From Escherichia coli (GTDB lineage: Bacteria; Pseudomonadota; Gammaproteobacteria; Enterobacterales; Enterobacteriaceae), in the NCBI RefSeq assembly GCF_044324785.1, contig NZ_CP172127.1: DNA of 64,000 nucleotides; one strand, 5' to 3'. Of the stretch, positions 6,149 through 63,985 are shown in pieces. Below the pieces are notes generated by a model. It worked only from the letters and a program-made list of their open reading frames with translations. It did no database searches and was not told the DNA's origin. The stretch's first letter is position 1. Every line of letters starts with the position of its first letter. The translations under genes were made by a program, and so were the position numbers.

Positions 6149-7247
6149 ACTGGTGTTCTGACTAAAATGTTATCAATAGCTTTAATATAAGATCGTATAA
6201 AGTTCTGTATATTAGCCGATGTTACCCTCCTCTTTATGACTTTCTTAATTTCATTATCCCCATATAACAAATATGTCATGATGAGAAGATTAATTTTTTC
6301 TTAATTTCCACAAGTGATTATCATGCTTCTTATTTTAACCAGAACAATATTGTTATATGTAACACTCATCTTTGTATCTTTCACCCACGCTACCGCCTTT
6401 CGTTAATCATTCAACGAAATAATTTAGATATGAAAAAATTACCCTGTAACAACACAACTAGCACATCCTGCCGAGTTGTGACATCTACTCTATAATTATC
6501 CAAAAGAGGTATTAGTATCTATTGTCAGTAATCCATTCTGTTTATTTATCTTATTTAAGACATGTGTAATACGACTCTCTTAGCCCAAATATATTAATCA
6601 GTAACTTTAAAGTAAGATTTAGTCAGAAAGTGATCGTGAAAATTTCACTGCCCAGGCTGTAATTTGTCCATCAACCTAACAGATAAATATTTTCAGGAAC
6701 ACACGTTCGATAAAACAATAGATGCAACATTAGAGCACTATTTTATTTTTAAAACAAAAGACTGTGAACTACACCAGGCATGAGAAGATTCTGTCGTGAG
6801 ATGATTTTTTCCAGATTAAAACACTATAAAATATAACTTTTACAGAATATTACGCCAGTAAATCAATATGCCATCTGCATATTCAAACAATAACTGCAAT
6901 CATTCTCAGCAAATTTAACCATAATTAGCAACGTGCAAATTCATTGATGCAGATCAAAAATCCGAGTTTACATTACCAATCTTTGTTGAAAATTTAGCCG
7001 TAAAAATCATGTTATTACTATACGCAAGAGTTTACTCCAGAGCCCAAAATAATAACTTGCAAAATAACCAATAATTAAAACTATCACCATATCTAAAAAT
7101 AAAGGTCTCCGATAACTAAAATTCGTATTATCACGGTAGCGTTGATATTCTTCCATCTCTTAAGAAAAACTTAACTTTTACCCTATCAGGCCTGATCTAA
7201 TTTTAAACTATTTGATATCATAGCCCCGGCGAACCGGGGCATGATGA

Positions 7248-14949: not shown

Positions 14950-15141
14950 AATGGCTCACTCAAGCTTGCTCACGATTGATTCCAGTAACAAACCGTATTG
15001 TGTAATTATTTCTATAGCAGGTCGCTATATAGGCTTGTATACATCGAATAATTTGAAAATCAAAGAGATAGGTAGATTTTCACTCGAAAGTAGTATTACG
15101 TGTAAGTGAGGAGTAATTATTGTTCGGTATCAAAGGGAGAC

Positions 15142-15167
15142 AAAAAAAGCGCCCGCAGGCGCTTTTT
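15142..15167 (-). terminator. Rho-independent terminator downstream of serS
   Basis: caaaaaaagcgcccgcaggcgcttttt: GC-rich stem with an A-run on one side and a T-run on the other; sits between the serS stop and the dmsA upstream region. Confidence 0.6.
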
Positions 15168-15187
15168 AGATTCAGAAAAATTGGGTA

Positions 15188-31489: not shown

Positions 31490-31577
31490 GGTGAGGTGTC
31501 CGAGTGGCTGAAGGAGCACGCCTGGAAAGTGTGTATACGGCAACGTATCGGGGGTTCGAATCCCCCCCTCACCGCCA
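31490..31577 (+). tRNA. serW: tRNA-Ser (anticodon GGA)
   Basis: 88-nt sequence GGTGAGGTGTCCGAGTGGCTGAAGGAGCACGCCTGGAAAGTG...GGTTCGAATCCCCCCCTCACCGCCA with a long variable arm and an encoded CCA; adjacent to infA as serW is in K-12. Confidence 0.95.
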
Positions 31578-37403: not shown

Positions 37404-40250
37404 TCAGAAAGTCACATTCAGCGTGGCCTGACCGTTATAGCCTTCGGCGCTGCTGCCGCTGACGCTGTGGGCATAACCGGCCTGAACGCCCAGGGTGATA
37501 TTTTCCCGGACACGGGCTTCCAGTCCGGCCTGCAGGTCCAGTGACGTGCCATTCTGGGACGGTGAGAACGTCATGTTACTGCCGGCGGCGGCTGTCCCCA
37601 TGCTCATGTCACCCCGGGAACTGAAGGTGCGGATAACAGAAGGCTGTACCCACCAGTTCACCGGCAGTTCACGCACACGGTGTTTTGCACTGTCGCGCAG
37701 GGTGTCACGGGATGAGGTGCCTTCACCAAAGCTCATATCGTTGTGGCTGCCCAGACGGAAGCCGGCACGCATATGTTGTGCACTGCCATGCCCGAACTTC
37801 ACATAACCGGCGTTATCCTGGCCGTCATCCAGGGAAAGTCCCTGCCAGGTGTACTGCAGTTGTGGTTCCAGCATCAGGTTGTCAGTGATACTGAAGGGCA
37901 GACCGGTTTCCAGTGAGCCCAGCCAGCCCCAGCCCCGGGCGCGGAAGTCGTTATTGTCCGATGACGCTTTCATGCTGTGGCGGGTTCCCTGTGCCATAAT
38001 GTCAGCCCACAGGCCGGAGGACGTGTGTACCAGATTCAGGTATCCGCCCAGGCTGCCGGCATCATCCCGGACCGTGCCGGCGCGGGAGCCGTCATCATCC
38101 TTAACATCAACGGAAGAATGGCCAGCAGCACTATATACCCCCGCGGTCACAGACATACCGGCAACCTCTGTTCTCAGCAGGTCACTCTCCAGACGGACGA
38201 AGCCATAGCTGCCGCTGCTTTCCGGCGTGGCCCCACGGGCAATACCGCCGTTGTTATCGTGACCGAGATGACCGCCCTGAATGCTGAGACGGACGCTGTT
38301 ATTTTCACCGTTTACACCGGTCTGATGGCTGCGGGAGCCTGCCAGAATCCGGTCATAGTCCATTGCCTGTGTCAGCATGGAGGCATACAGGGGGACTTCA
38401 GCACGATAAGCATTTTCACTGCGCAGGTACCAGTCTTCATCGCTGTCACGGTTCAGGGTGTAGTTAAAGGCACCGGCCTGAAGCGGGCGACTCAGGGCAA
38501 ACGCACCTTCTTCTGTGGTGGCACCATTCTGTGCATCCACAACCCGGATACCCTGTCCGGAAGTTGCCACCCCGAGGTTACTGTTTCCGACATTTGTGAA
38601 CGCAAGCCAGGTTTTGCCGGTTGCCTGACCACCATTAATCACCAGCTGGTCAGAGGCATTGCTGCCATCAAGGCGAACACGCATATTGATGGTGCCACCC
38701 TGACCGGTGAGGTTACTGGTGGTCAGTTTATGGAACGTTACCGGGGCGTCGCCTTTTGCAACAGCACGGCTCAGGACGGCATCCTGTGTCGTCTGATTAT
38801 CAAAGCGAATCTCCCCTGCGTTAACAATATCGCCGGTACTGACCACATCACCATTCAGTACCATGCTGGCGCCTTTACTGAGCTGTGTTCTGCCACTCAG
38901 ACTTCCCCCGGCAGCCAGCGTCAGTGTTCCACGATGTCCGACAGTGGTGTTGCCAGCCTGTCCCCCGGCATTAACCGTAAAGCTGCCGCCATTTTCCAGC
39001 AGCAGGCCGCTGGCCTGACCGGATATGCCATCAATACTGAACTTACCGCTGGCATTGGTCCCCTCAACAGTGGCACCACTGTCTGCAATCAGGGCACCAC
39101 CGGATGTCATGGTGACACCTGTCGCCTTACCACCGGCAGACACTGCCAGGGTACCGCCGTCATCCACCCGTGTTTTCTGCGCTGAATGACCCTCCAGTAC
39201 ATCCAGACGACCGCCGGACTCCAGAACAACACCGTCAGCCTTACCGTTTTCCACCGCGAAATTGCCCAGACGGTTGCTGCCGGTGACGGTTGCCGCCGTA
39301 CTGGTGACCAGTGCGCCTCCCTGCTTCAGGGTGACATTCGTGGCTGTACCACCGGCGTTCACCTGCAGTTTGCCTTTCTGGTTAACGGTGGTGAAATCCG
39401 CCAGACCACCTTCCTTGATAATCTGCCAGCCGTCACTGTTCACAACAGTGTCAGACGTTGTACCGCCGTTGTGTACATACTGGTTACCGCCATTCAGCGT
39501 GGTATCCAGTGCGTGGCCATGTACCGTCTGGTCGCCGCCGGCATAAACCACAGTGGTATTTGCTGTTCCTTCAACAGTCACAATCTGACGACCATTTTTA
39601 TTGATGGTGGTACGTACGGCATTTCCGCGAACAAACTGCCCGGTATCACCATTTTCTGCATCCGGTCCTCCTTCTGCGCCGGTATTCACAACGGTGTCTG
39701 TTGCCACTGCGCCGGGTTTGACGACCTGCCAGCCCTTATCATTAATGACGGTTCCTGTGGCTATCGCACCTTCATGCATCCACTGCTCGCCACCATTCAG
39801 CGTGGTGTTCAGTGCCAGTCCCTTCAGGCTTTGTCCGCCTCCTTCATTGATTATTGTGTCTGTAGCCTTTCCCCCGGCACCTACAAACTGGAGCCCGCCG
39901 CTGCTGATGGTGGTATTACTGGCTGTGCCGCCATCCTGTACCCATTGCCCGCCGGTATTGGCCTCGTTATCCGTCCCATACTCCAGCCCGGTACTGATGG
40001 TCATTCCGTTGGTCGTACCGAAGACAATCTGGTTGTCATGATTTGTCAGTGTTCCGCCGTTCACGGTTTCTCCCGCCTCTACAACCGTGTCAGCAGCCAG
40101 TGCCGGGACTGGCGTGACAGCAGCAAGAGACAGCGCAACCGCCACACCGGCGCGTTTTCCCCGTGAGCGGGCCAGTTCGGAAGCCACCACCAGGGTGCCC
40201 GTAATGTGATTCCATACCAGCCTGTAGCTGGTGTTCAGATGTCGTTTCAT
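37404..40250 (-). CDS. flu: Antigen 43 (Ag43/Flu) self-associating autotransporter adhesin
   Basis: Start taken at MKRHLNTSYRLVWNHITGTLVVASE... (extended autotransporter signal peptide); Gly/Thr-rich beta-helix passenger; C-terminal beta-barrel ending ...GQATLNVTF. The ORF-track frame extends 25 codons further upstream. Confidence 0.9.
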   Translation of the reverse strand: MKRHLNTSYRLVWNHITGTLVVASELARSRGKRAGVAVALSLAAVTPVPALAADTVVEAGETVNGGTLTNHDNQIVFGTTNGMTISTGLEYGTDNEANTGGQWVQDGGTASNTTISSGGLQFVGAGGKATDTIINEGGGQSLKGLALNTTLNGGEQWMHEGAIATGTVINDKGWQVVKPGAVATDTVVNTGAEGGPDAENGDTGQFVRGNAVRTTINKNGRQIVTVEGTANTTVVYAGGDQTVHGHALDTTLNGGNQYVHNGGTTSDTVVNSDGWQIIKEGGLADFTTVNQKGKLQVNAGGTATNVTLKQGGALVTSTAATVTGSNRLGNFAVENGKADGVVLESGGRLDVLEGHSAQKTRVDDGGTLAVSAGGKATGVTMTSGGALIADSGATVEGTNASGKFSIDGISGQASGLLLENGGSFTVNAGGQAGNTTVGHRGTLTLAAGGSLSGRTQLSKGASMVLNGDVVSTGDIVNAGEIRFDNQTTQDAVLSRAVAKGDAPVTFHKLTTSNLTGQGGTINMRVRLDGSNASDQLVINGGQATGKTWLAFTNVGNSNLGVATSGQGIRVVDAQNGATTEEGAFALSRPLQAGAFNYTLNRDSDEDWYLRSENAYRAEVPLYASMLTQAMDYDRILAGSRSHQTGVNGENNSVRLSIQGGHLGHDNNGGIARGATPESSGSYGFVRLESDLLRTEVAGMSVTAGVYSAAGHSSVDVKDDDGSRAGTVRDDAGSLGGYLNLVHTSSGLWADIMAQGTRHSMKASSDNNDFRARGWGWLGSLETGLPFSITDNLMLEPQLQYTWQGLSLDDGQDNAGYVKFGHGSAQHMRAGFRLGSHNDMSFGEGTSSRDTLRDSAKHRVRELPVNWWVQPSVIRTFSSRGDMSMGTAAAGSNMTFSPSQNGTSLDLQAGLEARVRENITLGVQAGYAHSVSGSSAEGYNGQATLNVTF

Positions 40251-40459
40251 CAGCTTTTCCTTACAGAGGGTGAATAAAAAAGCCGGTACCCACAAATGTG
40301 GATACCGGCAGGTACAAAACAGCATGGTCAGATAAAGTGGTTTTTCCCGGACATAAATGCTTCCCCTCTCTCATCCGCCAGAGAAGTATCAGTCCGTTGT
40401 GTGCAATTCCGTTCTGCATGATGAAGAGATTCAGCTGCCTTTTCGCAGACCATTAACCA

Positions 40460-40510
40460 CCATAAACGATCGATGACAACGATCGATACCTGTTTTATCG
40501 ATCGTTTTAT
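40460..40510 (-). promoter_or_regulatory. Ag43 phase-variation switch: cluster of three GATC (Dam) sites in the flu upstream region (expected OxyR-binding region)
   Basis: GATC at 40468, 40481 and 40500 within ~35 bp, 210-260 bp upstream of the flu start. Confidence 0.6.
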
Positions 40511-41757: not shown

Positions 41758-43167
41758 ATGACAAGTATTCAACAACGAGCAGAACTGCACCGCCAGATAT
41801 GGCAAATTGCCAATGATGTCAGAGGTTCTGTTGACGGATGGGATTTTAAGCAATACGTTCTGGGCGCGCTTTTCTACCGTTTTATCAGCGAAAATTTTTC
41901 CAGCTATATTGAAGCCGGTGATGACAGTATCTGTTATGCGAAACTGGATGACAGCGTAATTACTGATGACATTAAAGACGATGCCATCAAAACTAAAGGC
42001 TACTTCATCTACCCAAGTCAGCTTTTCTGCAACGTAGCTGCGAAAGCAAATACCAATGACAGACTGAATGCAGATTTAAACAGTATCTTCGTTGCTATCG
42101 AAAGTTCTGCTTACGGTTACCCTTCAGAAGCTGACATCAAAGGTTTGTTTGCTGATTTCGATACCACCAGTAACCGCCTGGGTAACACCGTTAAGGATAA
42201 AAATGCCCGCCTGGCTGCGGTTCTGAAAGGGGTTGAAGGGTTAAAACTTGGTGACTTCAACGAACATCAGATTGACCTGTTCGGCGATGCCTATGAGTTC
42301 CTGATTTCTAACTATGCGGCGAATGCTGGTAAGTCAGGCGGCGAGTTTTTTACACCGCAGCATGTCTCTAAGCTGATTGCACAACTGGCTATGCACGGGC
42401 AGACCCACGTTAACAAAATCTACGACCCAGCCGCAGGTTCCGGTTCGCTGTTGTTACAGGCGAAAAAGCAGTTTGATGACCATATCATCGAAGAAGGCTT
42501 TTTTGGTCAGGAGATCAACCATACGACCTATAACCTGGCGCGTATGAACATGTTTTTGCACAACATCAACTACGACAAGTTTGATATCAAGCTGGGCAAT
42601 ACGCTGACTGAGCCGCACTTCAGAGATGAAAAACCGTTTGATGCCATCGTTTCTAACCCGCCGTATTCAGTGAAATGGATTGGCAGCGATGACCCGACGC
42701 TGATTAACGATGAGCGTTTTGCCCCGGCTGGCGTCCTGGCCCCCAAATCAAAAGCTGACTTCGCGTTTGTATTACATGCGCTGAACTATCTTTCGGCCAA
42801 AGGTCGCGCCGCGATTGTCTGCTTCCCGGGTATTTTTTACCGTGGCGGCGCAGAGCAGAAAATCCGTCAGTATCTGGTCGATAATAACTATGTCGAAACC
42901 GTGATTTCACTGGCACCGAACCTGTTCTTTGGCACCACCATTGCCGTAAACATTCTGGTGCTGTCTAAACATAAAACGGATACCAAAGTTCAGTTTATTG
43001 ACGCCAGCGAACTGTTCAAAAAAGAGACTAACAACAATATCCTGACCGATGCCCATATCGAACAGATTATGCAGGTATTTGCCAGCAAGGAAGATGTTGC
43101 TCATCTGGCGAAATCTGTTGCGTTTGAGACTGTTGTCGCGAATGACTATAACGGCTTTGTTGAATAA
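41758..43167 (+). pseudogene. hsdM: Type I restriction-modification methyltransferase subunit HsdM (IC/EcoR124-like), 3'-truncated by IS903; no hsdR or hsdS present
   Basis: N-terminus [47 protein letters not shown]; SAM-binding motif [10 protein letters not shown]; catalytic NPPY motif ([11 protein letters not shown]). The last 4 codons plus stop (GFVE*) are encoded by the IS903 terminal repeat starting at 43153. 469 aa versus ~520 expected. Confidence 0.75.
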
Positions 43168-44209
43168 ATCAGATTTCGGGTAAGTCTCCCCCGTAGCGGG
43201 TTGTGTTTTCAGGCAATACGCACGCTTTCAGGCATACCTGCTTTCGTCATTTTGTTCAGCGCTCGTACCAGGGCCATAGCCTCCGCAACCTGACCATCGT
43301 AGTCACGCAGCGTCAGTGAACCCCCGAACAGCTGTTTTACCCGGTACATCGCCGTTTCCGCTATCGAGCGACGGTTGTAATCTGTTGTCCATTTCCACCG
43401 CGCATTACTCCCGGTCATTCGCTGATTAGCCACTGCACGGTTACGGTCTGCATATTCACCGGGCCAGTAACCCGCACCTTTTCGGGGAGGGATAAGCGCG
43501 CTGATTTTCTTACGCCGCAGTTCATCGTGACATAGCCGGGTATCGTAAGCGCCATCGGCGGCGGCTGACCTGATTTTCCGGTGGGTTTGCCGGATTAACC
43601 CGGGGAAGGCCTCTGAGTCCGTAACGTTGTTCAGCGACAGGTCAGCGCAGATGATTTCATGTGTTTTACTGTCAACGGCGAGATGCAGCTTACGCCAGAT
43701 ACGGCGGCGTTCCTGGCCATGCTTTTTGACTTTCCACTCGCCTTCACCGAAGACCTTCAGCCCGGTGGAATCAATTACCAGGTGTGCGATTTCACCCCGG
43801 GTGGGCGTTTTGAAACTGACATTAACCGACTTTGCCCGCCTGCTGACACAGCTGTAATCCGGGCAGCGTAGCGGAACGTTCATCAGAGAAAAAATGGAAT
43901 CAATAAAGCCCTGCGCAGCCCGCAGGGTCAGCCTGAATACGCGTTTAATGACCAGCACAGTAGTGATGGCAAGGTCAGAATAGCGCTGAGGTCTGCCTCG
44001 TGAAGAAGGTGTTGCTGACTCATACCAGGCCTGAATAGCTTCATCATCCAGCCAGAAAGTTATGGAGCCACGGTTGATGAGGGCTTTATTGTAGGTGGGC
44101 CAGTTGGTGATTTTGAACTTTTGCTTTGCCACGGAACGGTCTGCGTTGTCGGGAAGATACGTGATCTGATCCTTCAACTCAGCAAAAGTTCGATTTATTC
44201 AACAAAGCC
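43153..44209 (-). mobile_element. IS903-like insertion sequence (IS5 family), 1057 bp, without target-site duplication
   Basis: 18-bp terminal inverted repeats GGCTTTGTTGAATAAATC at 43153-43170 and, inverted, at 44192-44209. Length equals IS903 as I recall it. The 9-bp flanks differ (gactataac vs gttacccgc). Confidence 0.85.
43209..44132 (-). CDS. IS903 transposase (DDE)
   Basis: GTG start at 44132 gives a 307-aa product (VAKQKFKITNWPTYNKALINRGSITFWLDDEAIQAWY...); the ORF-track frame extends to 44177. Confidence 0.85.
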   Translation of the reverse strand: MAKQKFKITNWPTYNKALINRGSITFWLDDEAIQAWYESATPSSRGRPQRYSDLAITTVLVIKRVFRLTLRAAQGFIDSIFSLMNVPLRCPDYSCVSRRAKSVNVSFKTPTRGEIAHLVIDSTGLKVFGEGEWKVKKHGQERRRIWRKLHLAVDSKTHEIICADLSLNNVTDSEAFPGLIRQTHRKIRSAAADGAYDTRLCHDELRRKKISALIPPRKGAGYWPGEYADRNRAVANQRMTGSNARWKWTTDYNRRSIAETAMYRVKQLFGGSLTLRDYDGQVAEAMALVRALNKMTKAGMPESVRIA

Positions 44210-45339
44210 GTTACCCGCTCTTCAATCTCATGCAATTGATTATGCAATATCGCATTTTCATCCTTTTGCCCGGCTAATGAGTGGGTAAGCGTCTCAACTT
44301 CTTGCTGTAATGCGGAGCTCCTGGCCTGGAAAAACTCAAGTTCCTTCAGAACCCGATCTTTAAGAGAGAATAGGTACTCTTCAGCTGACAGCGTGGTGAT
44401 CCTATGATGGGCGGCGGCGATAAATTCATCATAAAAATCATCACTCTTTGCATCCAGGGCAACAACAAACTCTTTCACTTGCTGATAAAACGGGTGAAAT
44501 GCCGGACCAGAAATCGTGTTTAAATGCCACTCAAGGAACACGACAACATAGTTTTTATAATCTCTGAGACGGTGTTCCATCATCCCCTGCTGACAGATAA
44601 ACGCTTTAAGCGCCACCAATGCTTCAACAGCACAGCGGTGCGACTCTGCTCGCGTGGCGGATAGGGATTCACTACGGTTGATGGTATGAGAAATTAACGT
44701 TTCATTTAAGACCGAAATTCTGTTCGCCATGAGCATAAATGCGCAGACGAAGAAAAGATCGTTGGTCGTCCTGATTTCCTGAAAGCGAAGCTGATGACTA
44801 GTAATAAATTGACGCCTGAGAAGCTTGTCCCATGGCCACCAGACAAAGGTGCGGAAAAAGTCAGAGGGAATATCCTGGGATGAAAAAAACTTGAGATCAG
44901 GTAACAGCTCCTGGCGCACTGACCACGGCATCGGAGCATAAACCTGCAAGGCGGGATCAAAAGACTGGCTGCGACAGATAACGACATCCGCTTGTATATC
45001 GCTAGCACGTGCGTACATGCGCTCCAACATCATGTTATCGACATAATCGTCGTCATCAAGAAAAATAACGTACTCACCGGTAGCAGCATCCAACCCGATG
45101 TTTCTTGAGCCTCCCCCACCAAGATTTGTCGTGTTGTTAATGACTCTAATTCGTGAATCAGTTTCAGCCAGCGCCGAGACAATCTCTAAGGTATTATCGT
45201 CAGAACAATCGTTGACAATAATGATTTCAATATCATTTAATGTTTGCGACAAAACAGTGCTCAATGTGTCGGAAATATATCCCGCCGCATTGTGCACAGG
45301 GATAATAACGGAAACAGCTATACTCTCTTTTTCAGACAT
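44179..45339 (-). CDS. Family-2 glycosyltransferase; C-terminus replaced by IS903-derived codons
   Basis: N-terminal GT-A fold (VIIPVHNAAGYISDTLSTVLSQTLNDIEIIIVNDCSDDNT ... FLDDDD). The last 9 codons and the stop lie inside the IS903 right inverted repeat (IS boundary 44209). Confidence 0.7.
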   Translation of the reverse strand: MSEKESIAVSVIIPVHNAAGYISDTLSTVLSQTLNDIEIIIVNDCSDDNTLEIVSALAETDSRIRVINNTTNLGGGGSRNIGLDAATGEYVIFLDDDDYVDNMMLERMYARASDIQADVVICRSQSFDPALQVYAPMPWSVRQELLPDLKFFSSQDIPSDFFRTFVWWPWDKLLRRQFITSHQLRFQEIRTTNDLFFVCAFMLMANRISVLNETLISHTINRSESLSATRAESHRCAVEALVALKAFICQQGMMEHRLRDYKNYVVVFLEWHLNTISGPAFHPFYQQVKEFVVALDAKSDDFYDEFIAAAHHRITTLSAEEYLFSLKDRVLKELEFFQARSSALQQEVETLTHSLAGQKDENAILHNQLHEIEERVTALLNKSNFC

Positions 45340-45460
45340 GCAATCACCTTGACGCTTAGCTTATAAACGTAATTATATTTATTTATGGGTAGCGTTTAAT
45401 TTGTAGGTTGCCAGTTTATTAAGGATGGGTAAGATGAAAGCGACTGAGCTTCATCAAAAA

Positions 45461-46606
45461 TTACTCTTCAACAACATCACGATATGTTTTTAATGTTTTA
45501 TTAATGATCATCACACTCGAGAATTTATCTTGAATGCGTTTTCTGCCATTGATACCCATTGCGACGCGCGTTTCTGGGTTATCCAACAGGAAACCGAGTT
45601 TCTCCGCTAATTCCTCGACAGATTTACTTTTTACAATCAACCCATTATAGTTATTGATAATTAAGCTATCACAGCCACCAACATCATAAGCGATACAAGC
45701 GCGCCCGACAGAGGAAGCTTCCAGCAAGATACGCGGTACGCCTTCGGCGTAGACCGACGGCAAAGCAACGATATTTGATTCTTCAATTAAATCAAATACA
45801 TTAGAGCAATGACCGAGCCAGTTAATCACGCCTTCGCTTTGCCACTTCTGTATCGTCGCCAGCGGAATTGCGTCTTTATCATTCTCAACTAAAATACCGG
45901 CAACATTCAGCGTAAAGTGAATATTTTTATTACTCAGTATTTTTTTGGCTTCAATCAGGTCACCCAGTCCTTTACTCCACAGCATACGGCTGGCAAAAAG
46001 GACGACCGGAACATCACGCTGCTGCTCCAGAGAGTATTTGTAAATCTCTGGATTAATACCCGCGCCATCAATAACAATAGTCTGTTTGTAATCGATACCA
46101 ACCAGATCGGCAAGTTTAGCTCTGTCTTTATCATGTTCGAACATAAACAAACTGCATTTGTTACTGGCGATATACTTATATGCCATAACAGTAAAACTTC
46201 GCAGCAGCTTAAGACAGGCAGACTCTGCGGAAAATACTCGGCCCAAACCGACAAAACTCAGAATAACAGGACGATGGGTACTTTTAGCCAGAAAACCGCC
46301 GATCAAACAGGGCTTGATGGTAATGCAGTGCAACAAATCTGGATTGATGTTTTGAATAATTTTCCGAGCCTTAGAAAAGGCCCGAAAGAAAATCAAAACG
46401 TTGAATGATTGGGCGACAAGTGGAATGTTATGGCAAACAAAACCTAATGTCCTGAATTTTTCCGCTATTTTATCATCGACAAAATGGCTAATAATGTGAA
46501 TCTCATAACCGGCATCTCGGGCGGCAATTGCACGATCGGTCCAATGCAAATCAAAATACCAATCCGAATTTATGAAATAACACAGTTTTTTCATTGCTAT
46601 GTCCAC
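45461..46606 (-). CDS. wbbO: GT4-family glycosyltransferase, WbbO-like (galactosyltransferase of D-galactan I pathway)
   Basis: 381 aa; GT-B C-terminal signature EGVPRILLEASSVGRACIAYDVGG; position matches the last gene of the Klebsiella wzm-wzt-wbbM-glf-wbbN-wbbO order. Confidence 0.75.
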   Translation of the reverse strand: MDIAMKKLCYFINSDWYFDLHWTDRAIAARDAGYEIHIISHFVDDKIAEKFRTLGFVCHNIPLVAQSFNVLIFFRAFSKARKIIQNINPDLLHCITIKPCLIGGFLAKSTHRPVILSFVGLGRVFSAESACLKLLRSFTVMAYKYIASNKCSLFMFEHDKDRAKLADLVGIDYKQTIVIDGAGINPEIYKYSLEQQRDVPVVLFASRMLWSKGLGDLIEAKKILSNKNIHFTLNVAGILVENDKDAIPLATIQKWQSEGVINWLGHCSNVFDLIEESNIVALPSVYAEGVPRILLEASSVGRACIAYDVGGCDSLIINNYNGLIVKSKSVEELAEKLGFLLDNPETRVAMGINGRKRIQDKFSSVMIINKTLKTYRDVVEE

Positions 46607-48666
<2,060 letters not shown>

Positions 48667-50559
48667 TTAGCCAAGAATCGAACGGCGAACTTTATAATAA
48701 TATTTGATGAGCTTATTTCTTCTTGGCGAACCGACAGGAGCATATTTGTTAACATATGGCATTAAAGCTCTTTTAATCTTTGTCTGCAGTAACACGGTTT
48801 GCTGCAGTTCAGTATGTTGGTTAGGTACTACCGTGGCCACAGGTAACTGGCGATAGTAGATTTCTTTCTCCCATGGCGTACTTAAAACATTCTCAAGAAA
48901 ATCATCATAGAAATCGACTTTCTCAGTATTCCATGGTTTGTTTTCACCCGCATAGTGAATCATTTTTGGATTTCTTCTGGCTTGCAAAAAGCGCATATAG
49001 GTTGAAAACTTGAGATTCGGGAAGAAATCATCGGTATTACCATTACCATGGTACACGTTCCATTCTAATGGTAAGAATTTGACTCGGCCAAAGAAGACTT
49101 TGTTCATGATATCCTGATCTAAGAACCAATACTTTTTGGCTTTCAATGCTGACATCAATTGAGCAAAGGTATTCTCTGTAACCATTTGTTCGACATTAAA
49201 AACAATAATCCCGGCCTGAAAATATTCGTCAGGATTAGTCATTCCTAATGTCTTTTTCAGGTATTGCTCTGCAGGCATAATGCCATCATCTGATTCTGAC
49301 ATGGTACCAAACTTCACAAACCCTTCCATGACGATGTCTTTAACAGCGGCAACCAGGTTAGTGCCGATCTCGACATCCAGAAGTGTCGCCAAATCAGCCT
49401 TCACCACGGTGTCAGAATCGATAAACACAACTTTTTTATACTCGCGGAAAAGTTGCGGGATGAACAAGCGCGCATAGGTCGACGCACTAAAATGTGCACG
49501 GGTATGAACATCACTCATCTCAGTGAATGAATTCACATCAAAAAAGCGCAATGATATGTTGTTATGACCAGCAACTAGCTTGATAAGGCGTTGTTTATTT
49601 AAATGACTGACCTTATTTTCCAGAACAACGATATCATAGTTTCTGCTCGCATCAGAATGGAGAACAATTGAATTGATTAATGCCCCGCCACTTAATGCAT
49701 AGTTATTATCAAAACTAATAACAACCGGTACGCTTTCGTCAAAAACGGGCTTTAATTTACCATTAAATGTTTCAGCAGTAACAAACGTGCGCTGTAGTTC
49801 TTTTATTTTTAGCTGTTTATCTTGTTGACATTTGATGATATAGATATTGAATAAACGCTCAGCAATGTGTCCTATAACTCGTTTTTCTTGAGCGTTGTAG
49901 TTATTCATCGAAATCCGATCTTCAAGATTAGACAAAATAGCAAAAAGCCATTCAGAATAATCCAGGAACATGTCTTTGCGCATAACAAACATGTTCGTAT
50001 AATAACCATCAGTTGCATTATTGAATTGTTGAATCGCAGCTTTATATTGTGGATACAGCTCTTCAACGACATCCAGGGCAGACTGATAGTCTTTAATGTG
50101 TAAAAACTCACCTTTTGCATAATGATCAAGGTTATTCTTACTTCCTGCCGATGTTACCGACCATTTTTTGGGTAACAGCAGATCATATCCATCGACGCAG
50201 GTGCTTATGGATTCATCACTTAATCCAAACTGGCTTTCGTATTCGGCATTGATGAGCGGGTAGTTGACTACCCCCCAGTTATCCTCAGGATGATTTTGTT
50301 GTTCTGCAAAGTTCAAGTGTCTGCGGTAATGCATGAATCCCACATAGTCAGCCAGAGATTCATTCTTCCACACCCAGTAGTGGGCCGTCAGCTCACAATA
50401 GAAGGGGTTTTTAAAGGAAATGTTGTCTCCGCTATCATCCCCTTCACAGCCAATATCATTATAAGTATTAGCCTTCCCGACATGCAGTGGTTTAATAATA
50501 GAGGCATTTAGAAAAGCACTGGGTTTGTGGTGACATGTATAAATTTTGATACTATTCAT
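48667..50559 (-). CDS. wbbM: WbbM-like bifunctional glycosyltransferase (N-terminal DUF4422-like domain + C-terminal GT8 domain)
   Basis: 630 aa; C-terminal GT8-like region (VVISFDNNYA...FIDSDTVV). Size and position match Klebsiella WbbM. Confidence 0.8.
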   Translation of the reverse strand: MNSIKIYTCHHKPSAFLNASIIKPLHVGKANTYNDIGCEGDDSGDNISFKNPFYCELTAHYWVWKNESLADYVGFMHYRRHLNFAEQQNHPEDNWGVVNYPLINAEYESQFGLSDESISTCVDGYDLLLPKKWSVTSAGSKNNLDHYAKGEFLHIKDYQSALDVVEELYPQYKAAIQQFNNATDGYYTNMFVMRKDMFLDYSEWLFAILSNLEDRISMNNYNAQEKRVIGHIAERLFNIYIIKCQQDKQLKIKELQRTFVTAETFNGKLKPVFDESVPVVISFDNNYALSGGALINSIVLHSDASRNYDIVVLENKVSHLNKQRLIKLVAGHNNISLRFFDVNSFTEMSDVHTRAHFSASTYARLFIPQLFREYKKVVFIDSDTVVKADLATLLDVEIGTNLVAAVKDIVMEGFVKFGTMSESDDGIMPAEQYLKKTLGMTNPDEYFQAGIIVFNVEQMVTENTFAQLMSALKAKKYWFLDQDIMNKVFFGRVKFLPLEWNVYHGNGNTDDFFPNLKFSTYMRFLQARRNPKMIHYAGENKPWNTEKVDFYDDFLENVLSTPWEKEIYYRQLPVATVVPNQHTELQQTVLLQTKIKRALMPYVNKYAPVGSPRRNKLIKYYYKVRRSILG

Positions 50560-50573
50560 CTTATTACCAATTA

Positions 50574-51314
50574 TTAAGCCATTGCTTGCTTGTAAAGTTC
50601 AATGATTCTCTCTGCTGAGCCAATTTCGCGGAGTTTATGGTTTTCGATCCAAACAACTCTGTCACAGATTTTTTCAACATCACTCATATTGTGGCTAACG
50701 AATAATATCGTTACACCCTTATTTTTGAAGTCTCGTATTGTTTGTATACATTTGGCCTGGAACGAAATGTCACCGACAGCAAGTACCTCATCGATAATAA
50801 GTATATCGGGTTCTACCTGGCTGATGACAGAGAATCCAAGCTTCGCAAGCATACCACTTGAGTACACGCGAATAGGTTCGTCAATGAAATCACCCAGCTC
50901 GGAGAACTCAATTATCCGATCCATCCGTTGCTGAACCTCTTTGCGGCGTAGCCCAAGCAGGGTCGCATTGAGATAAATATTTTCTCGCCCGGTTAATTCA
51001 GGGTGAAAACCGCCGCCTAGCTCAAGCATTGAGGCAACGCGTCCCTGGGTTGTAACAGTGCCTTTTGTAGGCTTAATGACGCCGGCCACCAGCCCGAGGG
51101 AGGTACTTTTCCCTGCGCCGTTACGACCAATCAGCGCTACGGCCTCGCCTTTACCCACGGTGAAGGTAATGTCTTCGATCGCAAGATATTTACGCCCTTT
51201 TAACAGCTGAAAAGCTCTTTTAGGGTGAAATACGAGATCCTTAATTCCTGAGCCAATATGGTGGTAAAGAGGATACTCTTTCGTAACGTGACTAAAGTTT
51301 ATTACTGGTTCCAT
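50574..51314 (-). CDS. wzt: O-polysaccharide ABC transporter ATP-binding protein Wzt (short form, no carbohydrate-binding extension)
   Basis: 246 aa; Walker A GRNGAGKST, signature YSSGMLAKL, Walker B ILIIDE. Confidence 0.9.
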   Translation of the reverse strand: MEPVINFSHVTKEYPLYHHIGSGIKDLVFHPKRAFQLLKGRKYLAIEDITFTVGKGEAVALIGRNGAGKSTSLGLVAGVIKPTKGTVTTQGRVASMLELGGGFHPELTGRENIYLNATLLGLRRKEVQQRMDRIIEFSELGDFIDEPIRVYSSGMLAKLGFSVISQVEPDILIIDEVLAVGDISFQAKCIQTIRDFKNKGVTILFVSHNMSDVEKICDRVVWIENHKLREIGSAERIIELYKQAMA

Positions 51315-52093
51315 TACAAAATCTCTGCAAATCGATATTTTAATTTATTAAAAATACTCAGGCCCACAATTGTCAGGACTAAACCTGTAATGTAAAGGAT
51401 TGAAATATATTCATAATTTAAGACGCCATCCATGAACAGCTGCCGCCAGCTGAGGATCATGCTTGCCAGAGGATTATAGGTAATAATCCAGCTAAATTTT
51501 TCAGGAATCATATCTGACGCATATAATATCGGCGTGCAATAAAACATGAGCATGATACCAAGGCTGACAAATCGCTCTAAATCCCTGAAGAACAGATTTA
51601 GCGTAGAAAATATGATTGAAATACCAAATGTAAAAATCACCTGACCAAGCGCAATAATTGGTACGCCCCAGAGCCATGAGAGCGATGGACGCATACCATA
51701 CACGAACAGGAATGCAATAATCACAGGAATTGTACACAAGAAATGTACCCCTTCCATCATGACATTACTCAATGGAATAACTGAGCGCGGAAAAACTGTT
51801 TTTTTGATTATTTGCGCATTGGCTATAAACGAAAACAAGGAATTTGTCGCCGAGCTGGCAAACCATTGCCACGGAAATAAACCGGTAATCAAGAAAAGGG
51901 TATAATTCGGGATCTGCACTCGCATAACGAGCTTAAAAATGAAATAATATATCATTGCAAAAAGCAGTGGATTCGCAATTGACCATAAGTAACCAAATAC
52001 GCTGCTTTTATAACGTACCTTTAAATCTTTGTTTGTTATAACAACAAGAAGATCAAACAAATACCCTATATTATACTTCATTTTTATACTCAT
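51314..52093 (-). CDS. wzm: O-polysaccharide ABC transporter permease Wzm
   Basis: 259 aa; six-TM ABC-2-type permease; stop overlaps the wzt start. Confidence 0.9.
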   Translation of the reverse strand: MSIKMKYNIGYLFDLLVVITNKDLKVRYKSSVFGYLWSIANPLLFAMIYYFIFKLVMRVQIPNYTLFLITGLFPWQWFASSATNSLFSFIANAQIIKKTVFPRSVIPLSNVMMEGVHFLCTIPVIIAFLFVYGMRPSLSWLWGVPIIALGQVIFTFGISIIFSTLNLFFRDLERFVSLGIMLMFYCTPILYASDMIPEKFSWIITYNPLASMILSWRQLFMDGVLNYEYISILYITGLVLTIVGLSIFNKLKYRFAEIL

Positions 52094-52390
52094 AAATTAT
52101 TCTACAAAAAATTCCGTACGTAATATGTATCAAACAGAATTATCGATAAGATCTGCTGTGCTCGAGAGACGAACAGCTATTCCCATAAACAAAGACCAAT
52201 TGTAACATCATTTTGCACAAGCAATATGTAAACAATCTTTCCTGCGCATTAGCACTCCGGAATCGGAGATGATCGCTAACCTCAGTAACCGCTGAATGAA
52301 AATGTGATTCTCGTGGAAGATACATAAACCATCCTTTAAGATTGTAAATAAAATGTTAAATCGAACAATGAGTTTATTCTAAAATTCAGA

Positions 52391-52402
52391 CACGCTACCG
52401 CC
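52391..52402 (-). promoter_or_regulatory. ops element (RfaH recruitment site, part of a JUMPstart) in the leader of the wzm operon
   Basis: Plus strand reads cacgctaccgcc; its reverse complement is the exact ops sequence GGCGGTAGCGTG, on the operon strand about 300 bp upstream of wzm. Confidence 0.7.
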
Positions 52403-53051
52403 ATTGGCTATCGCAACCAAAATGCGGACTCCCCTCTCTAAAGTGTCTGTCTTACCCGGTCTTACCGTAACGAAGAGGATACGCTCGTCGTTAGCTCCAC
52501 AAGCATTACCGGCGCAGCATTCATGAAGCCACAAACAGCCTAGTCAGCGTTCGGCAAAAAAGCTAAAAACAAACGGATATCTGTACTCAGCGCCCCTCTC
52601 CGGACTCACATCCATCGCTACACCGCAACAAATGCACCGCTACTTTCCCCAGTTTATGGCATCCTATCCATCAGGACTTTCTCATTTCACCCTTGAAACC
52701 AACAAAAAGCGTCACTCTCGGCAGTATGACTTCAACAGCCATGTAGCTGGGCGCTCCGCATCTCTACATGAGTCAGGCAGAGTATTAAGTTCGCGGGCAG
52801 GCAGCGGCAACACCACCAGGATAACGTACTTCCTCATCCTATCTTGCATAAAAGTGAATTTGACTTTTCTTCAAAAGTGGTCAAATCCGAGCGTCGTAGG
52901 GTACGTTTGCTGCGCATTATCAATAATGCATCCGTAGGACGTGAATTACGCGCGCATTATAGCTCTGGTCTGGAAGAATAAAAATGAAAAAGCATGACCA
53001 ATCCATCCAGCCAAAAAATACTGAAGTGGTCAACAAAAACTGGCCACCGAG

Positions 53052-53455
<404 letters not shown>

Positions 53456-55695: not shown

Positions 55696-56057
55696 TAAAT
55701 CTTCCCGCAGGCACAAAAATCTGGCTGGTTGCCGGTATCACCGATATGCGCAACGGCTTCAATGGTCTCGCCGCAAAGGTGCAGACAGCGTTGAAAGATG
55801 ACCCGATGTCCGGCCACGTCTTCATCTTCCGGGGCCGCAGCGGCAGTCAGGTCAAACTGCTGTGGTCCACCGGCGACGGACTGTGCCTGCTGACCAAAAG
55901 GCTGGAGCGTGGCCGCTTCGCCTGGCCGTCGACCCGCGATGGCAAAGTGTTCCTGATGCCGGCGCAGCTGGCGATGCTGATGGAAGGTATCGACTGGCGA
56001 CAGCCAAAGCGGTTACTGACGTCCCTGACATGTTGTAGCCCAGGTCTTCTTCGTTGA
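55692..56057 (+). CDS. IS66-family accessory protein TnpB (OrfB)
   Basis: MINLPAGTKIWLVAGITDMRNGFNGLAAKVQTALKDDPMSGHVFIFRGRSGSQVKLLWSTGDGLCLLTKRLERGRFAWP matches the IS66 OrfB family as I recall it. Confidence 0.8.
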   Translation: MINLPAGTKIWLVAGITDMRNGFNGLAAKVQTALKDDPMSGHVFIFRGRSGSQVKLLWSTGDGLCLLTKRLERGRFAWPSTRDGKVFLMPAQLAMLMEGIDWRQPKRLLTSLTCCSPGLLR

Positions 56058-56877
56058 TAAAGTTCACATCCAGAGGATGGATACTTCCTGTAGCCCGTAA
56101 TATCGTCGATTCAATATCCTGCACATTCATCGGGATCACCGATGCAAGAAAAGCCCATTGATCAGAATAAGGCTGGAAATTAATATCAACAAAAACGCTT
56201 CCCCCCGATGCACGCGGTCTTTTTTGCAGAGGTAACGCGATAAGATTACCAAATCCTCCTTTTGGCATAGTATCCTGATTAGGAAATAATCGGTCATAAG
56301 AACTCAATTGCAGCTGTCGGGTCCGGCTGCACGTATAGCTAATAATAGCAGTCCCCAGACGGCGAGCTTCGCGGGCCGAAACTCGTGAAGCAAAAAATAT
56401 CCAGACATGCGCTCCCTGACGTGAGCGGGATATTTCCAGCGCAGCAGGTACACTCAGCTCATCACAGGCTCGCATGAACGCGGATGCATCCTTCTGCCAT
56501 TCAGCTTTATCAAAATCAACAGCCAGAAAATAACAGGAATCATCTTCCAGCAACGGATATAACCCGGCAGTATGCGTGCCTGCCAGATGCTGGTAGATGA
56601 CAAGATCAGATACAGGGAGTAACTGACGGTGCGTACAGTCCCCGCATTTTATCCGGGGTTTACCGCATATTCTCGCCTGCCATTCGTTAGCGCAGGCAGG
56701 AGAGTACCCTGATTTGCCGCTGGTTTTACTTTCCCAACGAAGGGCCCATATATCATCACGCCCACGAAACAACCGACGAAATAATGCAACCTTCTCGTCG
56801 GTGGATAATACGGAAACGCGCTGCACAGGGCTCGGCGGTTTACGTCGCCATTCCAAGTAATGAGACCAGACGGGCAT
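56058..56877 (-). pseudogene. Primase-like protein (archaeo-eukaryotic primase / prim-pol type N-terminal domain), 3'-truncated at the IS66 boundary
   Basis: Motifs LAVDFD (DxD) and RQGAHVWIFF (H-containing motif). The reading frame continues into antisense IS66 orfB sequence (to 55852), so the native C-terminus, where a helicase domain would be expected, is missing. Confidence 0.5.
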
Positions 56878-62830: not shown

Positions 62831-63985
62831 TCATCGCTGGTTTTCCATAATCTGAGACATCACATAATCCGCCCATGCCTGCATCATCGGTATACGCTGA
62901 TCCAGCAGATCAGTCCGGTGATATGCCGCCTCAACCTTATTTTTCAGCGTATGGGCAAGCGCCCTTTCCGCCAAATCCCGCGAATATCCCTGTTCGCTAC
63001 ACCAGTCCCTGAATGTTGAACGAAAACCATGTGCTGTAGCCACTCGTCCGGGTATATCACTGATGGCCTTCTTTTTACGCAGAAAACTCGTCAACACCAT
63101 ATCTGAAAGGATCTGCTGCTTTCTGGGAGAAGGAAACACCAGTTCGTCATGCAGACCACGTATATTTTCCAGAACGTGAATGGCCTGTCGGGATAAAGGA
63201 ACACGATGCTGTATCCTGGCTTTCATTCTTTCTGCGGGTATCGTCCATATCCGCTTATGAAAATCAATTTCAGCCCAGCGCATTCCCCTTGCTTCGCCCG
63301 AGCGGGTTGCTGTCAGTATCACCATTAATAACAGTGCCCGGGTAACATTATAAGGTTCATCTGTATACACACTGGTCGCCACAAAAAGCGGTAACTGCCT
63401 CCAGGGCATTGCCGGCTGGTGTTCATCACGTCCTCTTGATTGCTGTGGAAGCAAATGATCAACCACATCAACAGGATTCGCCACACAAAAACCATGCGCC
63501 CAGCCCCACTGCATAACAACATGAATGCGCTGTTTAACCCGGCTTGCCGTTTCTGACAAGGTTAACCAGACTGGACGCAGTGTTTCTGCCACGTCCGCAG
63601 CCGTAATCGAATCCAGCGTTTTTGCTCCCAGTTGAGGAAACGCGTAATTCTCAAGCGTCGATAACCACTGCCTTACATGCTTTGGATTTTCCCATCCAGG
63701 AGACAGTTCTGCATGTACACGCCTGGCTGCATCGGCAAATGTTGGGATAACAACTTTTTCAGCTTCAGCCTTTTTAATCTCCAGAGGATCATCACCTGCA
63801 GCAAGTTGCTCTCGCATTATCCGGGCAGTACGTGCAGCTTCAGCAATACTGACCTCAGGATAAGTTCCCAATCCAGCATTACGCCTTTTTTGTGTCACCG
63901 GACTTACATAACGAAAAACCCATTTACCCCTCCCCTTTACTGAAGAAGGATGAAGAGTCAGTCCTGTAATTCCCCCATGGGGCAA
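62831..63985 (-). CDS. int: Tyrosine recombinase / P4-type integrase (N-terminus may extend beyond the window)
   Basis: N-terminal arm-binding region (GGITGLTLHPSSVKGRGKWVFRY), AYPEVS-like motif (GTYPEVS) and C-terminal catalytic region (HGFRSTFRDW ... AYHRTDLLDQR). The ORF-track start is a TTG and the frame is still open at position 64000. Confidence 0.85.
   Translation of the reverse strand: MPHGGITGLTLHPSSVKGRGKWVFRYVSPVTQKRRNAGLGTYPEVSIAEAARTARIMREQLAAGDDPLEIKKAEAEKVVIPTFADAARRVHAELSPGWENPKHVRQWLSTLENYAFPQLGAKTLDSITAADVAETLRPVWLTLSETASRVKQRIHVVMQWGWAHGFCVANPVDVVDHLLPQQSRGRDEHQPAMPWRQLPLFVATSVYTDEPYNVTRALLLMVILTATRSGEARGMRWAEIDFHKRIWTIPAERMKARIQHRVPLSRQAIHVLENIRGLHDELVFPSPRKQQILSDMVLTSFLRKKKAISDIPGRVATAHGFRSTFRDWCSEQGYSRDLAERALAHTLKNKVEAAYHRTDLLDQRIPMMQAWADYVMSQIMENQR

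Follow-up and report, generated by a model that had tools for sequence, protein, structure and literature searches.

The ops element, when placed in an untranslated leader, recruits RfaH, whose targets lack a Shine-Dalgarno sequence (PMC6391919, PMC7819879). These targets are long, horizontally acquired envelope operons that have an ops in the leader and weak ribosome-binding sites and are silenced by Rho/NusG and H-NS unless RfaH has been loaded (PMC6391919, PMC7819879, PMC9765446). In the E. coli strain CFT073 RfaH was bound at 8/8 of the leader ops sites on the non-template strand, while ops-like sites within coding regions were unbound, and start codons followed ops at distances from 40-67 nt up to ~600 nt (PMC9765446). 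Thus, an exact ops in a leader can be regarded as a good predictor of RfaH control. A well described polysaccharide example is region 3 of the kps cluster, whose promoter PR3 lies 741 bp upstream of kpsM, is recognized by sigma-70, and has a consensus -10, no -35 and an ops in its leader; this leader ops gives RfaH-dependent read-through into the ABC-transporter polysaccharide operon (PMC8960920). The ops is also found at the end of the JUMPstart element, whose stem Weinberg et al. reported in 2010 (PMC2864571).

Here, we analysed a stretch of 64 kb of Escherichia coli chromosomal DNA (called the window below), and in it the interval 52094-53051, which precedes the wzm gene. We consider it likely that this interval serves a horizontally acquired galactan O-antigen operon of the ABC-transporter type as its 5' regulatory leader, and this estimate covers the whole explanation, including the predicted loading of RfaH. 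The transcription start, the dependence on RfaH and the expression in E. coli are what we infer from the sequence and its conservation. The features on which the argument depends are collected in Table 1.

Table 1. Coordinates of the features of the leader and of the operon within the window.
Feature	Position	Strand	Remarks
Terminal inverted repeat of an IS911/ISEc52-like IS3-family remnant	53022..53055	-	matches tested up to 53051
Block A, promoter-like TTTTTCATTTTTATTC-N5-GACCAGnGCTATAATGCGC	52952..52991	-	invariant across four divergent leader types
Second promoter-like site, TTCACG-18-GATAAT	52916..52945	-	carries second copy of ATAATGCGC
Block B, TGrGAAAkTCCTGAT	52669..52684	-	conserved leader element, ~265 nt upstream of ops
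JUMPstart element	52391..52427	-	RF01707 alignment; stem arms 52420-52416 and 52408-52404
ops element, GGCGGTAGCGTG	52391..52402	-	exact match and conservation; predicted RfaH recruitment/pause site, non-template strand
Third promoter-like site, TTGTTC-16-TACAAT	52368-52341		downstream of ops; score 9.1; not conserved
Post-ops spacer	52082..52390	-	309 nt, AU-rich, 37% GC
Putative operon of seven tightly spaced genes	44179..52081	-	followed by IS903B
wzm	52081-51314	-	ABC-transporter permease; ORF extends to 52093
wzt	51314-50574	-	RefSeq: 'O-antigen export ABC transporter ATP-binding protein RfbB'
wbbM-like DUF4422 gene	50559-48667	-
glf	48648-47494	-
GT2 glycosyltransferase gene	47497-46607	-
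GT4 glycosyltransferase gene	46606-45461	-
Second GT2 glycosyltransferase gene	45339-44179	-

The ops element and its JUMPstart context

The 12-nt ops consensus, GGCGGTAGnnTG, is matched without any deviation by GGCGGTAGCGTG at 52402-52391, on the minus strand, from which the wzm operon is read as its coding (non-template) strand. The distance between ops and wzm is 297 nt if the ATG at 52093 is used and 309 nt for the ATG at 52081, and no conserved ORF extends over the site. The CFT073 distances reach ~600 nt, and the gap of 309 nt is therefore within precedent. The original prediction had placed an exact ops on the operon strand about 300 bp upstream of wzm, and both its strand and its distance were borne out. 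The analytic expectation for the exact 12-mer is ~0.008 per window, and it appeared in none of 100 dinucleotide-preserving shuffles. The window itself contains two exact copies (52391-52402 and 6386-6397), both on the minus strand, and each of them closely precedes a polysaccharide operon, outside any gene and on the strand that codes for the operon.

The match at wzm closes a full-length JUMPstart element on its 3' side. In a permissive local Rfam scan, the complete RF01707 model (1-38/38) was aligned at 52427-52391 with 25.6 bits and an E value of 0.0039. This is below the gathering score of the family (25.6 vs 35 bits), and no JUMPstart was reported when the whole window was scanned with gathering thresholds; the low score is explained by a shorter loop and by a UUGG/CCAA variant of the stem. 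We then looked at the stem in 22 distinct sequences taken from orthologous loci. Its five base pairs, which end one base before ops, are paired in 100% of these homologues, and two of the pairs are altered on both sides (C-G/U-A, 11:11, and U-A/A-U, 20:2). The covariation score was reached by 0/500 shuffles, and slid controls were paired in 16-59%. Since the stem had been reported before (PMC2864571), its covariation confirms membership in practice and is not new. Alignment of the leader with JUMPstart sequences had been proposed as a check of the original prediction, and the full RF01707 alignment together with the stem covarying among the 22 homologues gives it a positive outcome. The location also agrees, as the element lies upstream of wzm-wzt-wbbM-glf and glycosyltransferase genes. 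Thus, although the curated score is missed, the element, judged by its structure, position and ops sequence, is the JUMPstart/ops leader of an O-antigen operon.

JUMPstart is reportedly a general feature of rfb leaders, as Hobbs and Reeves are said to have noted in 1994. In ~600 other E. coli genomes the match to our leader was limited to 42 nt (52426-52385). In O8-type rfb clusters this stretch precedes manC by ~70 nt, and it was also present upstream of a plasmid-borne rfbBADC-ABC-transporter cluster; identity to the JUMPstart of the O8-type manC and plasmid rfbBADC loci amounts to 40-45 of 42-46 nt. Among the species carrying orthologous loci, the 8-nt ops core is kept in its JUMPstart context, on the operon strand and 5' of wzm, in ~20/26. 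The distance to wzm in these loci is 60-390 nt if wzm is the first gene, and it is greater when other genes intervene.

The other exact ops of the window (6397-6386, minus strand) precedes an accessory EAL-GGDEF-bcsA-bcsB-bcsC operon by 238 nt. This operon has ycaM and pflA on either side of its insertion and is present in only 9/5426 complete E. coli genomes. Together with a 6-bp hairpin (TTCGTT/AACGAA) that ends one base before it, this ops is invariant in bcs leaders which are ~74% identical overall. The CFT073 RfaH regulon is without an accessory cellulose-synthase operon of this kind (PMC9765446), and in the literature searched, none of the partial matches listed had a title or abstract connecting RfaH with a cellulose-synthase operon. 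RfaH control of the bcs operon is, as a prediction from sequence, more unusual than that of the wzm operon.

Origin, extent and composition of the leader

The first 31.5 kb of the window carry core genes (ftsK, serS, dmsABC and others) and end at tRNA-Ser(GGA), 31490-31577. From this tRNA gene a mosaic island extends to a tyrosine integrase gene (62831-63985) adjoining clpA. The leader is 100% identical in 40-odd complete E. coli genomes, including SMS-3-5; a rarer region of the window has a 100% match to E. coli strain N3. The cluster is carried by ~1% of complete E. coli genomes, and no description of it in its island-borne form was found in the literature searched. The search brought up only the O89m locus, which is flanked by nfsB and ybdK (PMC6128206), and the O8-to-OgN5 switch in ST410 (PMC10786849), both unrelated to our cluster.

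At the DNA level, the segment 53021-46317 shares 99.3% identity with Raoultella ornithinolytica and 95.6% with R. planticola. As this segment includes the leader, the whole leader must have been imported with the operon. A scan with Wzm, which covered one genome per species, gave 100% amino acid identity for R. planticola and R. ornithinolytica, 93% for Klebsiella michiganensis and K. grimontii, and 67-85% for Serratia, Pantoea, Tatumella and others; within this sampling no K. pneumoniae sensu stricto locus was recovered. The leader makes up, in Raoultella, the proximal 941 nt of a divergent intergenic region of ~1.37 kb, adjoining a gene for an NAD-dependent epimerase and ugd. E. coli obtained the operon from a donor similar to R. 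ornithinolytica, and it carries it on an island that has an integrase gene and is bordered by tRNA-Ser(GGA) and clpA.

The homology to Raoultella begins at 53021, which sets the junction with the insertion sequence at 53021/53022. IS3-family elements of hundreds of genomes have ends that match query positions 1-33/39. In RefSeq, a DDE transposase pseudogene is annotated at this remnant; it is frameshifted, its own promoter end is missing, and it has the same orientation as the operon. Judged by this junction, the DNA derived from Raoultella is bounded upstream by the IS terminal repeat, which is outside the leader. The top 30 nt (53022-53051) of the interval thus belong to the terminal repeat, which leaves 52094-53021, i.e., 928 nt, as leader-type DNA.

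No conserved ORF was found in 52094-53051. We considered as genes the ORFs of 101 aa on the plus strand and of 61, 51 and 45 aa on the minus strand, and rejected them: they have no NCBIfam match and are not conserved in R. planticola, whose 91%-identical copy interrupts both the 101-aa and the 61-aa frame. A short ORF starting from Block B (ATGGAT...) was also discarded, its ATG being absent from rfbB-type leaders. A repeat search of the leader gave only short, chance-level repeats. Upstream of ops the leader is rich in G and poor in C, with a C/G ratio of 0.3-0.9 over most of its length, and RNA of such composition is a poor substrate for the loading of Rho. The spacer downstream of ops is not conserved beyond Raoultella, except for the last ~30 nt. 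When folding was compared with shuffled sequences, neither the 548 nt before ops (z -0.80) nor the 333 nt after it (z +0.44) were exceptional; these values give no sign of a riboswitch-like or unusually structured leader RNA. Scans of the leader and of the operon for intrinsic terminators were at or below chance, and on these scans we rejected the classic model of read-through of an intrinsic terminator. For the same reason, 'antitermination' is best understood here as elongation control against Rho and H-NS combined with recruitment of ribosomes.

The gene order wzm-wzt-DUF4422/WbbM-like-glf-glycosyltransferase is the one known from the Klebsiella D-galactan I O-antigen cluster. The operon has 7.9 kb and 41.5% GC. 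The start of wzm at 52081 is the one annotated by RefSeq in identical genomes and the sole start conserved in 24 orthologues, all of which begin with MKY(N/S)xGYL. Its Shine-Dalgarno sequence is weak, with only a 3-nt GAG core conserved, and the best duplex with the anti-Shine-Dalgarno sequence has -2.2 kcal/mol vs -10.3 kcal/mol for cydC in the same window. A long, AT-rich, horizontally acquired envelope operon with a weak Shine-Dalgarno sequence at its first gene corresponds to the profile of RfaH targets.

Conserved blocks of the leader and promoter candidates

Comparison of the E. coli/Raoultella leaders with those of the K. oxytoca complex shows that they are essentially unalignable save for discrete islands, while the coding regions are ~75% identical. 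Just three islands are shared by the four mutually divergent leader types of Klebsiella/Raoultella, which precede wzm or rfbB: Block A (52991-52952), Block B (52684-52669) and JUMPstart/ops (52426-52388). Inside these islands 77/94 columns do not vary, vs 7% outside. We also scanned metagenomes with Block A, which gave 38 loci, 35 of them with enough downstream sequence. In all of these informative loci (35/35) a JUMPstart/ops in the orientation of Block A is found 329-559 nt past the -10, and the exact Block B motif, GAAAnTCCTGAT, lies between them in 33/35, with all leader types represented. The first gene at the metagenomic loci is either wzm or rfbB. In E. coli, IS-adjacent rfbBADC O-antigen clusters that are plasmid-borne or plasmid-derived also have Block A, at ~430 nt before rfbB, and the rfbB-type leaders keep the order of Block A, Block B and JUMPstart despite the different first gene. 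Block B is absent from the leaders of Serratia, Pantoea and Tatumella.

Block A contains an invariant -10 hexamer, TATAAT, at 52961-52956, 559 nt upstream of ops, and a weak -35, TTTTTA (3/6), at 52984-52979; a looser conservation reaches upstream to ~53009. It is the top sigma-70-like site by PWM in each leader. With a perfect TATAAT but only 3/6 in the -35, its score is 10.4, compared with a mean best score of 10.8 in shuffles, and the promoter call therefore rests on conservation and orientation. A simple consensus promoter scan did not list Block A; the output contained TTCACG-18-GATAAT alone, which is fewer sites than in shuffles. Only leaders of the Raoultella and L060 types conserve this second site (52945-52916), and those of the K. 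oxytoca complex lack it, which makes the evidence for it weaker. We find Block A the most likely promoter candidate, with a predicted start of transcription at ~52949, ~7 nt 3' of TATAAT. It could, instead or besides, be the site of a regulator, because GACCAGnGC is invariant in the promoter spacer and the conservation extends to -60.

If the start at Block A is right, the transcribed leader would be ~868 nt long, with ops near +548. The original prediction assumed an untranslated leader of ~950 bp and a promoter farther upstream, near the IS remnant. The untranslated character of the leader stands, as no conserved ORF is present, and its length has to be shortened to the 928 nt of leader-type DNA and to the predicted ~868 nt of transcript. 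The position proposed for the promoter agrees with the conserved TATAAT, a candidate -10 that the IS junction approaches to ~60 bp and the one promoter-like site kept across the divergent leaders.

Three other explanations have to be weighed against RfaH loading from a start at Block A. Ops-like sites do occur within genes (34/42 in CFT073; PMC9765446), and GGCGGTAGCGTG might on this ground be taken for a chance match without regulatory meaning; given the 0/100 shuffles, the JUMPstart context, the covarying stem and the conservation across genera, we give this practically no credence, and the conservation data effectively refute it. It is also quite improbable that ops and JUMPstart are an unused relic in E. 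coli, with RfaH never loaded and the main promoter located downstream, e.g., at 52368-52341. A promoter-like site scoring 9.1 does sit there, 23-50 nt 3' of ops, and in K. michiganensis a comparable TACAAT is located about as far from wzm. However, the score is under the mean best score of shuffles, the -10 of R. planticola reads TACAAC and has lost the key final T, and the K. oxytoca-type spacer is unalignable at this position. A start downstream of ops is thus unlikely, since the promoter-like site is not conserved and ops is. The conservation of ops far beyond its surroundings implies, moreover, that it was transcribed and used in the donor lineage.

The neighbouring IS raises the remaining alternative, in which transcription comes from the IS (by read-through or from an outward TTGACC -35) or the cluster is silenced by H-NS/Rho, and the leader has no current role. 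The IS3-family remnant, co-oriented with the operon, ends 60 bp from the -10, TTGACC is present at 53033-53028 in the IS911-type terminal repeat, and plasmid copies exist with IS5 directly 5' of JUMPstart, so that IS-adjacent layouts evidently persist. We nevertheless hold this to be unlikely: there is no acceptable -10 at 16-18 nt after TTGACC, and the IS fragment is a frameshifted pseudogene deprived of its own promoter end. Even with a start driven by the IS, ops would stay downstream of the start, inside the transcript, and would still load RfaH; the central claim is therefore unaffected. A natural variant touches the same question. In a copy of the operon on an IncFII plasmid, IS5 is inserted at the equivalent of 52494; Blocks A and B are lost, and 65 nt followed by JUMPstart/ops are kept. 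Since this copy persists without Block A, the block is dispensable for persistence of the cluster. The variant is informative, not decisive.

Beyond loading of RfaH, one may ask what the other conserved blocks do. The leaders of Klebsiella/Raoultella O-antigen clusters may form a distinct three-part control module, in which Block B, invariant over 12-16 nt, and the conserved spacer and upstream part of Block A would be putative sites for a regulator or an RNA factor; we put this forward tentatively and consider it rather doubtful. If it were true, such a factor would gate the number of polymerases reaching ops, which would be an undescribed layer of O-antigen control upstream of RfaH loading. 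A search by eye for an RcsAB box or a CRP site in Block B and in the upstream half of Block A gave unconvincing matches which needed a change of spacing.

Proposed mechanism and comparison with known systems

In the mechanism we favour, with Block A as the promoter, transcription would start ~7 nt 3' of a TATAAT that is a good -10 accompanied by a poor -35. RNA polymerase would then cross ~550 nt of the G-rich, C-poor leader containing Block B, transcribe the JUMPstart hairpin and pause at ops (52402-52391). According to the established mechanism of RfaH, the non-template DNA of ops would fold into a small hairpin which recruits and activates RfaH, and RfaH would remain on the polymerase and exclude NusG. 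Bound in this way, it may suppress Rho- and H-NS-promoted termination over the AT-rich 7.9-kb operon and aid the loading of ribosomes at wzm with its vestigial Shine-Dalgarno sequence. The rfaH gene is a core gene of E. coli; it lies outside the window, and we assume its presence in the host.

The finding itself is ordinary. This is the textbook setting of JUMPstart/ops, and what is known of RfaH or JUMPstart is unchanged by it. Slightly beyond the textbook are, as far as the predicted start holds, the position of ops in the middle of the leader, ~550 nt after the start and ~300 nt before the gene, and the architecture of Block A, Block B and JUMPstart, which appears to be common to Klebsiella/Raoultella O-antigen clusters with different first genes. 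An imported Raoultella O-antigen operon, on an island or a plasmid, brings the JUMPstart/ops leader of its donor along. As the donor leader travels with the operon, a foreign surface antigen is predicted to be plugged into the RfaH elongation control of the recipient. This helps to understand how expression of foreign, AT-rich polysaccharide clusters could be possible in the face of silencing by Rho and H-NS. For expression studies of the galactan cluster, the leader is now mapped, with a candidate promoter, Block B and ops.

The closest counterpart of the element is found in the leaders of E. coli O8/O9-type (Klebsiella-derived) rfb clusters, which have the same 12-nt ops and the same TTGGTTGCGATAGCCAAT hairpin, with 40/42 nt identical, on the same strand and at the same place in the untranslated leader of an O-antigen operon. 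They differ in the distance between ops and the first gene, which is 309 nt here and ~70 nt in the O8/O9-type rfb clusters, and in their location, which is the his-gnd rfb locus and not the tRNA-Ser/clpA island (or, in other strains, IncFII plasmids).

In its layout, the predicted leader resembles that of PR3-kpsMT in the group 2 capsule cluster, which is also long and has a good -10, a poor or absent -35 and an ops within. However, ops is 28 bp from kpsM in the kps cluster and in the middle of the leader here (~+548 of ~868), the two leaders have no sequence similarity apart from ops, and control by H-NS/SlyA is a feature of kps PR3. The hlyCABD leader of CFT073, with ~600 nt between ops and the start codon (PMC9765446), is a precedent for the 300-nt gap; it belongs to a toxin operon, its sequence is unrelated, and it has an intergenic terminator without a counterpart here. 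As for the genes themselves, the Klebsiella O1/O2 D-galactan I cluster (wzm-wzt-wbbM-glf-wbbN-wbbO) has the same gene order and the same protein families as our operon, which carries in addition an extra GT2 gene after the sixth gene, and whose closest Wzm relatives are those of Raoultella (100%) and of the K. oxytoca complex (93%).

Conserved elements of the O-antigen leader and its insertion-sequence border

Between the promoter-like TATAAT block (Block A) and the JUMPstart element of the wzm leader lies a further conserved element, Block B, which is invariant in every Klebsiella/Raoultella-type O-antigen leader that we examined and always has the promoter-like block before it and JUMPstart after it. 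It is missing from the leaders of Serratia, Pantoea and Tatumella. Three candidate identities of Block B were considered, namely a sigma-70 promoter, the start of a conserved open reading frame and a conserved hairpin, and each of them was ruled out.

Closer to the predicted transcription start, the motif ATAATGCGC is present in two copies spaced by 39 nt, both on the minus strand. The copy at 52952-52960 is part of Block A, while that at 52913-52921 belongs to a second promoter-like site (GATAAT). The presence of the motif in both sites suggests that Raoultella-type leaders may carry tandem promoters. The predicted start itself is straddled by an inverted repeat (52923-52936 / 52947-52960).

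We also inspected the insertion-sequence end upstream of the leader. The terminal repeat of the IS911-type element contains a -35-like hexamer, TTGACC (53028-53033, minus strand), facing outward, toward the leader. Since no usable -10 was found 16-18 nt past this hexamer, it forms no obvious hybrid promoter with the leader.

Coordinates of additional features in the window
Feature	Position	Strand	Remark
Block B (TGrGAAAkTCCTGAT)	52669-52684	-	Short invariant element, mid-leader
Second exact ops	6386-6397	-	1.1-kb AT-rich region
Accessory operon: EAL phosphodiesterase, GGDEF, bcsA, bcsB, bcsC	6148-259, on past window start	-	
Other island cargo (autotransporter, IS102 RNA, HsdM, PrimPol-like), jointly	37404-40325, 40269-40505, 41758-43167, 55852-56877	-, -, +, -	
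STnc130, enterobacterial sRNA	15040-15174	+	Full-length match, high score (140 bits)

A second ops upstream of an accessory cellulose-synthase operon

The region holding the second ops is flanked by ycaM and by an accessory EAL-GGDEF-bcsABC operon which is rare in E. coli (9 of 5426 complete genomes), and the ops precedes the start of the EAL gene by 238 nt. A 6-bp hairpin (TTCGTT/AACGAA) adjoins it, ending 1 nt before ops, and both are invariant among leaders sharing only about 74% overall identity. This arrangement predicts that the second cellulose-synthase operon would be under RfaH control. Our literature search returned no paper combining RfaH, cellulose synthase, ops and bcsA. Elsewhere in the window, the STnc130 match is placed between dmsA and serS.

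Related leaders and the origin of the galactan cluster

A different ABC-transporter O-antigen cluster, rfbBADC-GT-wzm, occurs on E. coli plasmids and on a chromosomally integrated plasmid segment (loci L030, 5001-5434; L031; L003, 4001-4097). Upstream of it we found either the same Block A, Block B and JUMPstart leader or JUMPstart alone, and these leaders directly adjoin fragments of IS26, ISEc36 or IS630.

In E. coli the galactan O-antigen cluster is located not at the rfb locus but in a mosaic island lying between tRNA-Ser(GGA) and clpA (window 31578-64000). The island also carries an autotransporter adhesin of the Ag43/Cah family, just upstream of which Rfam gives an "IS102 RNA" match, a type I restriction-modification HsdM subunit adjoining IS903B, and a PrimPol-like fragment, labelled in RefSeq as a "TOTE conflict system" pseudogene, which is broken up by IS66/ISL3 elements.

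About 45-49 of 5426 complete genomes have the galactan cluster with an identical IS junction. The same operon is plasmid-borne in other strains; among these plasmids is one of the IncFII type, in which an IS5 cuts the leader short at the position corresponding to 52494. Compared with Raoultella ornithinolytica, the galactan cluster shows 99.3% identity.
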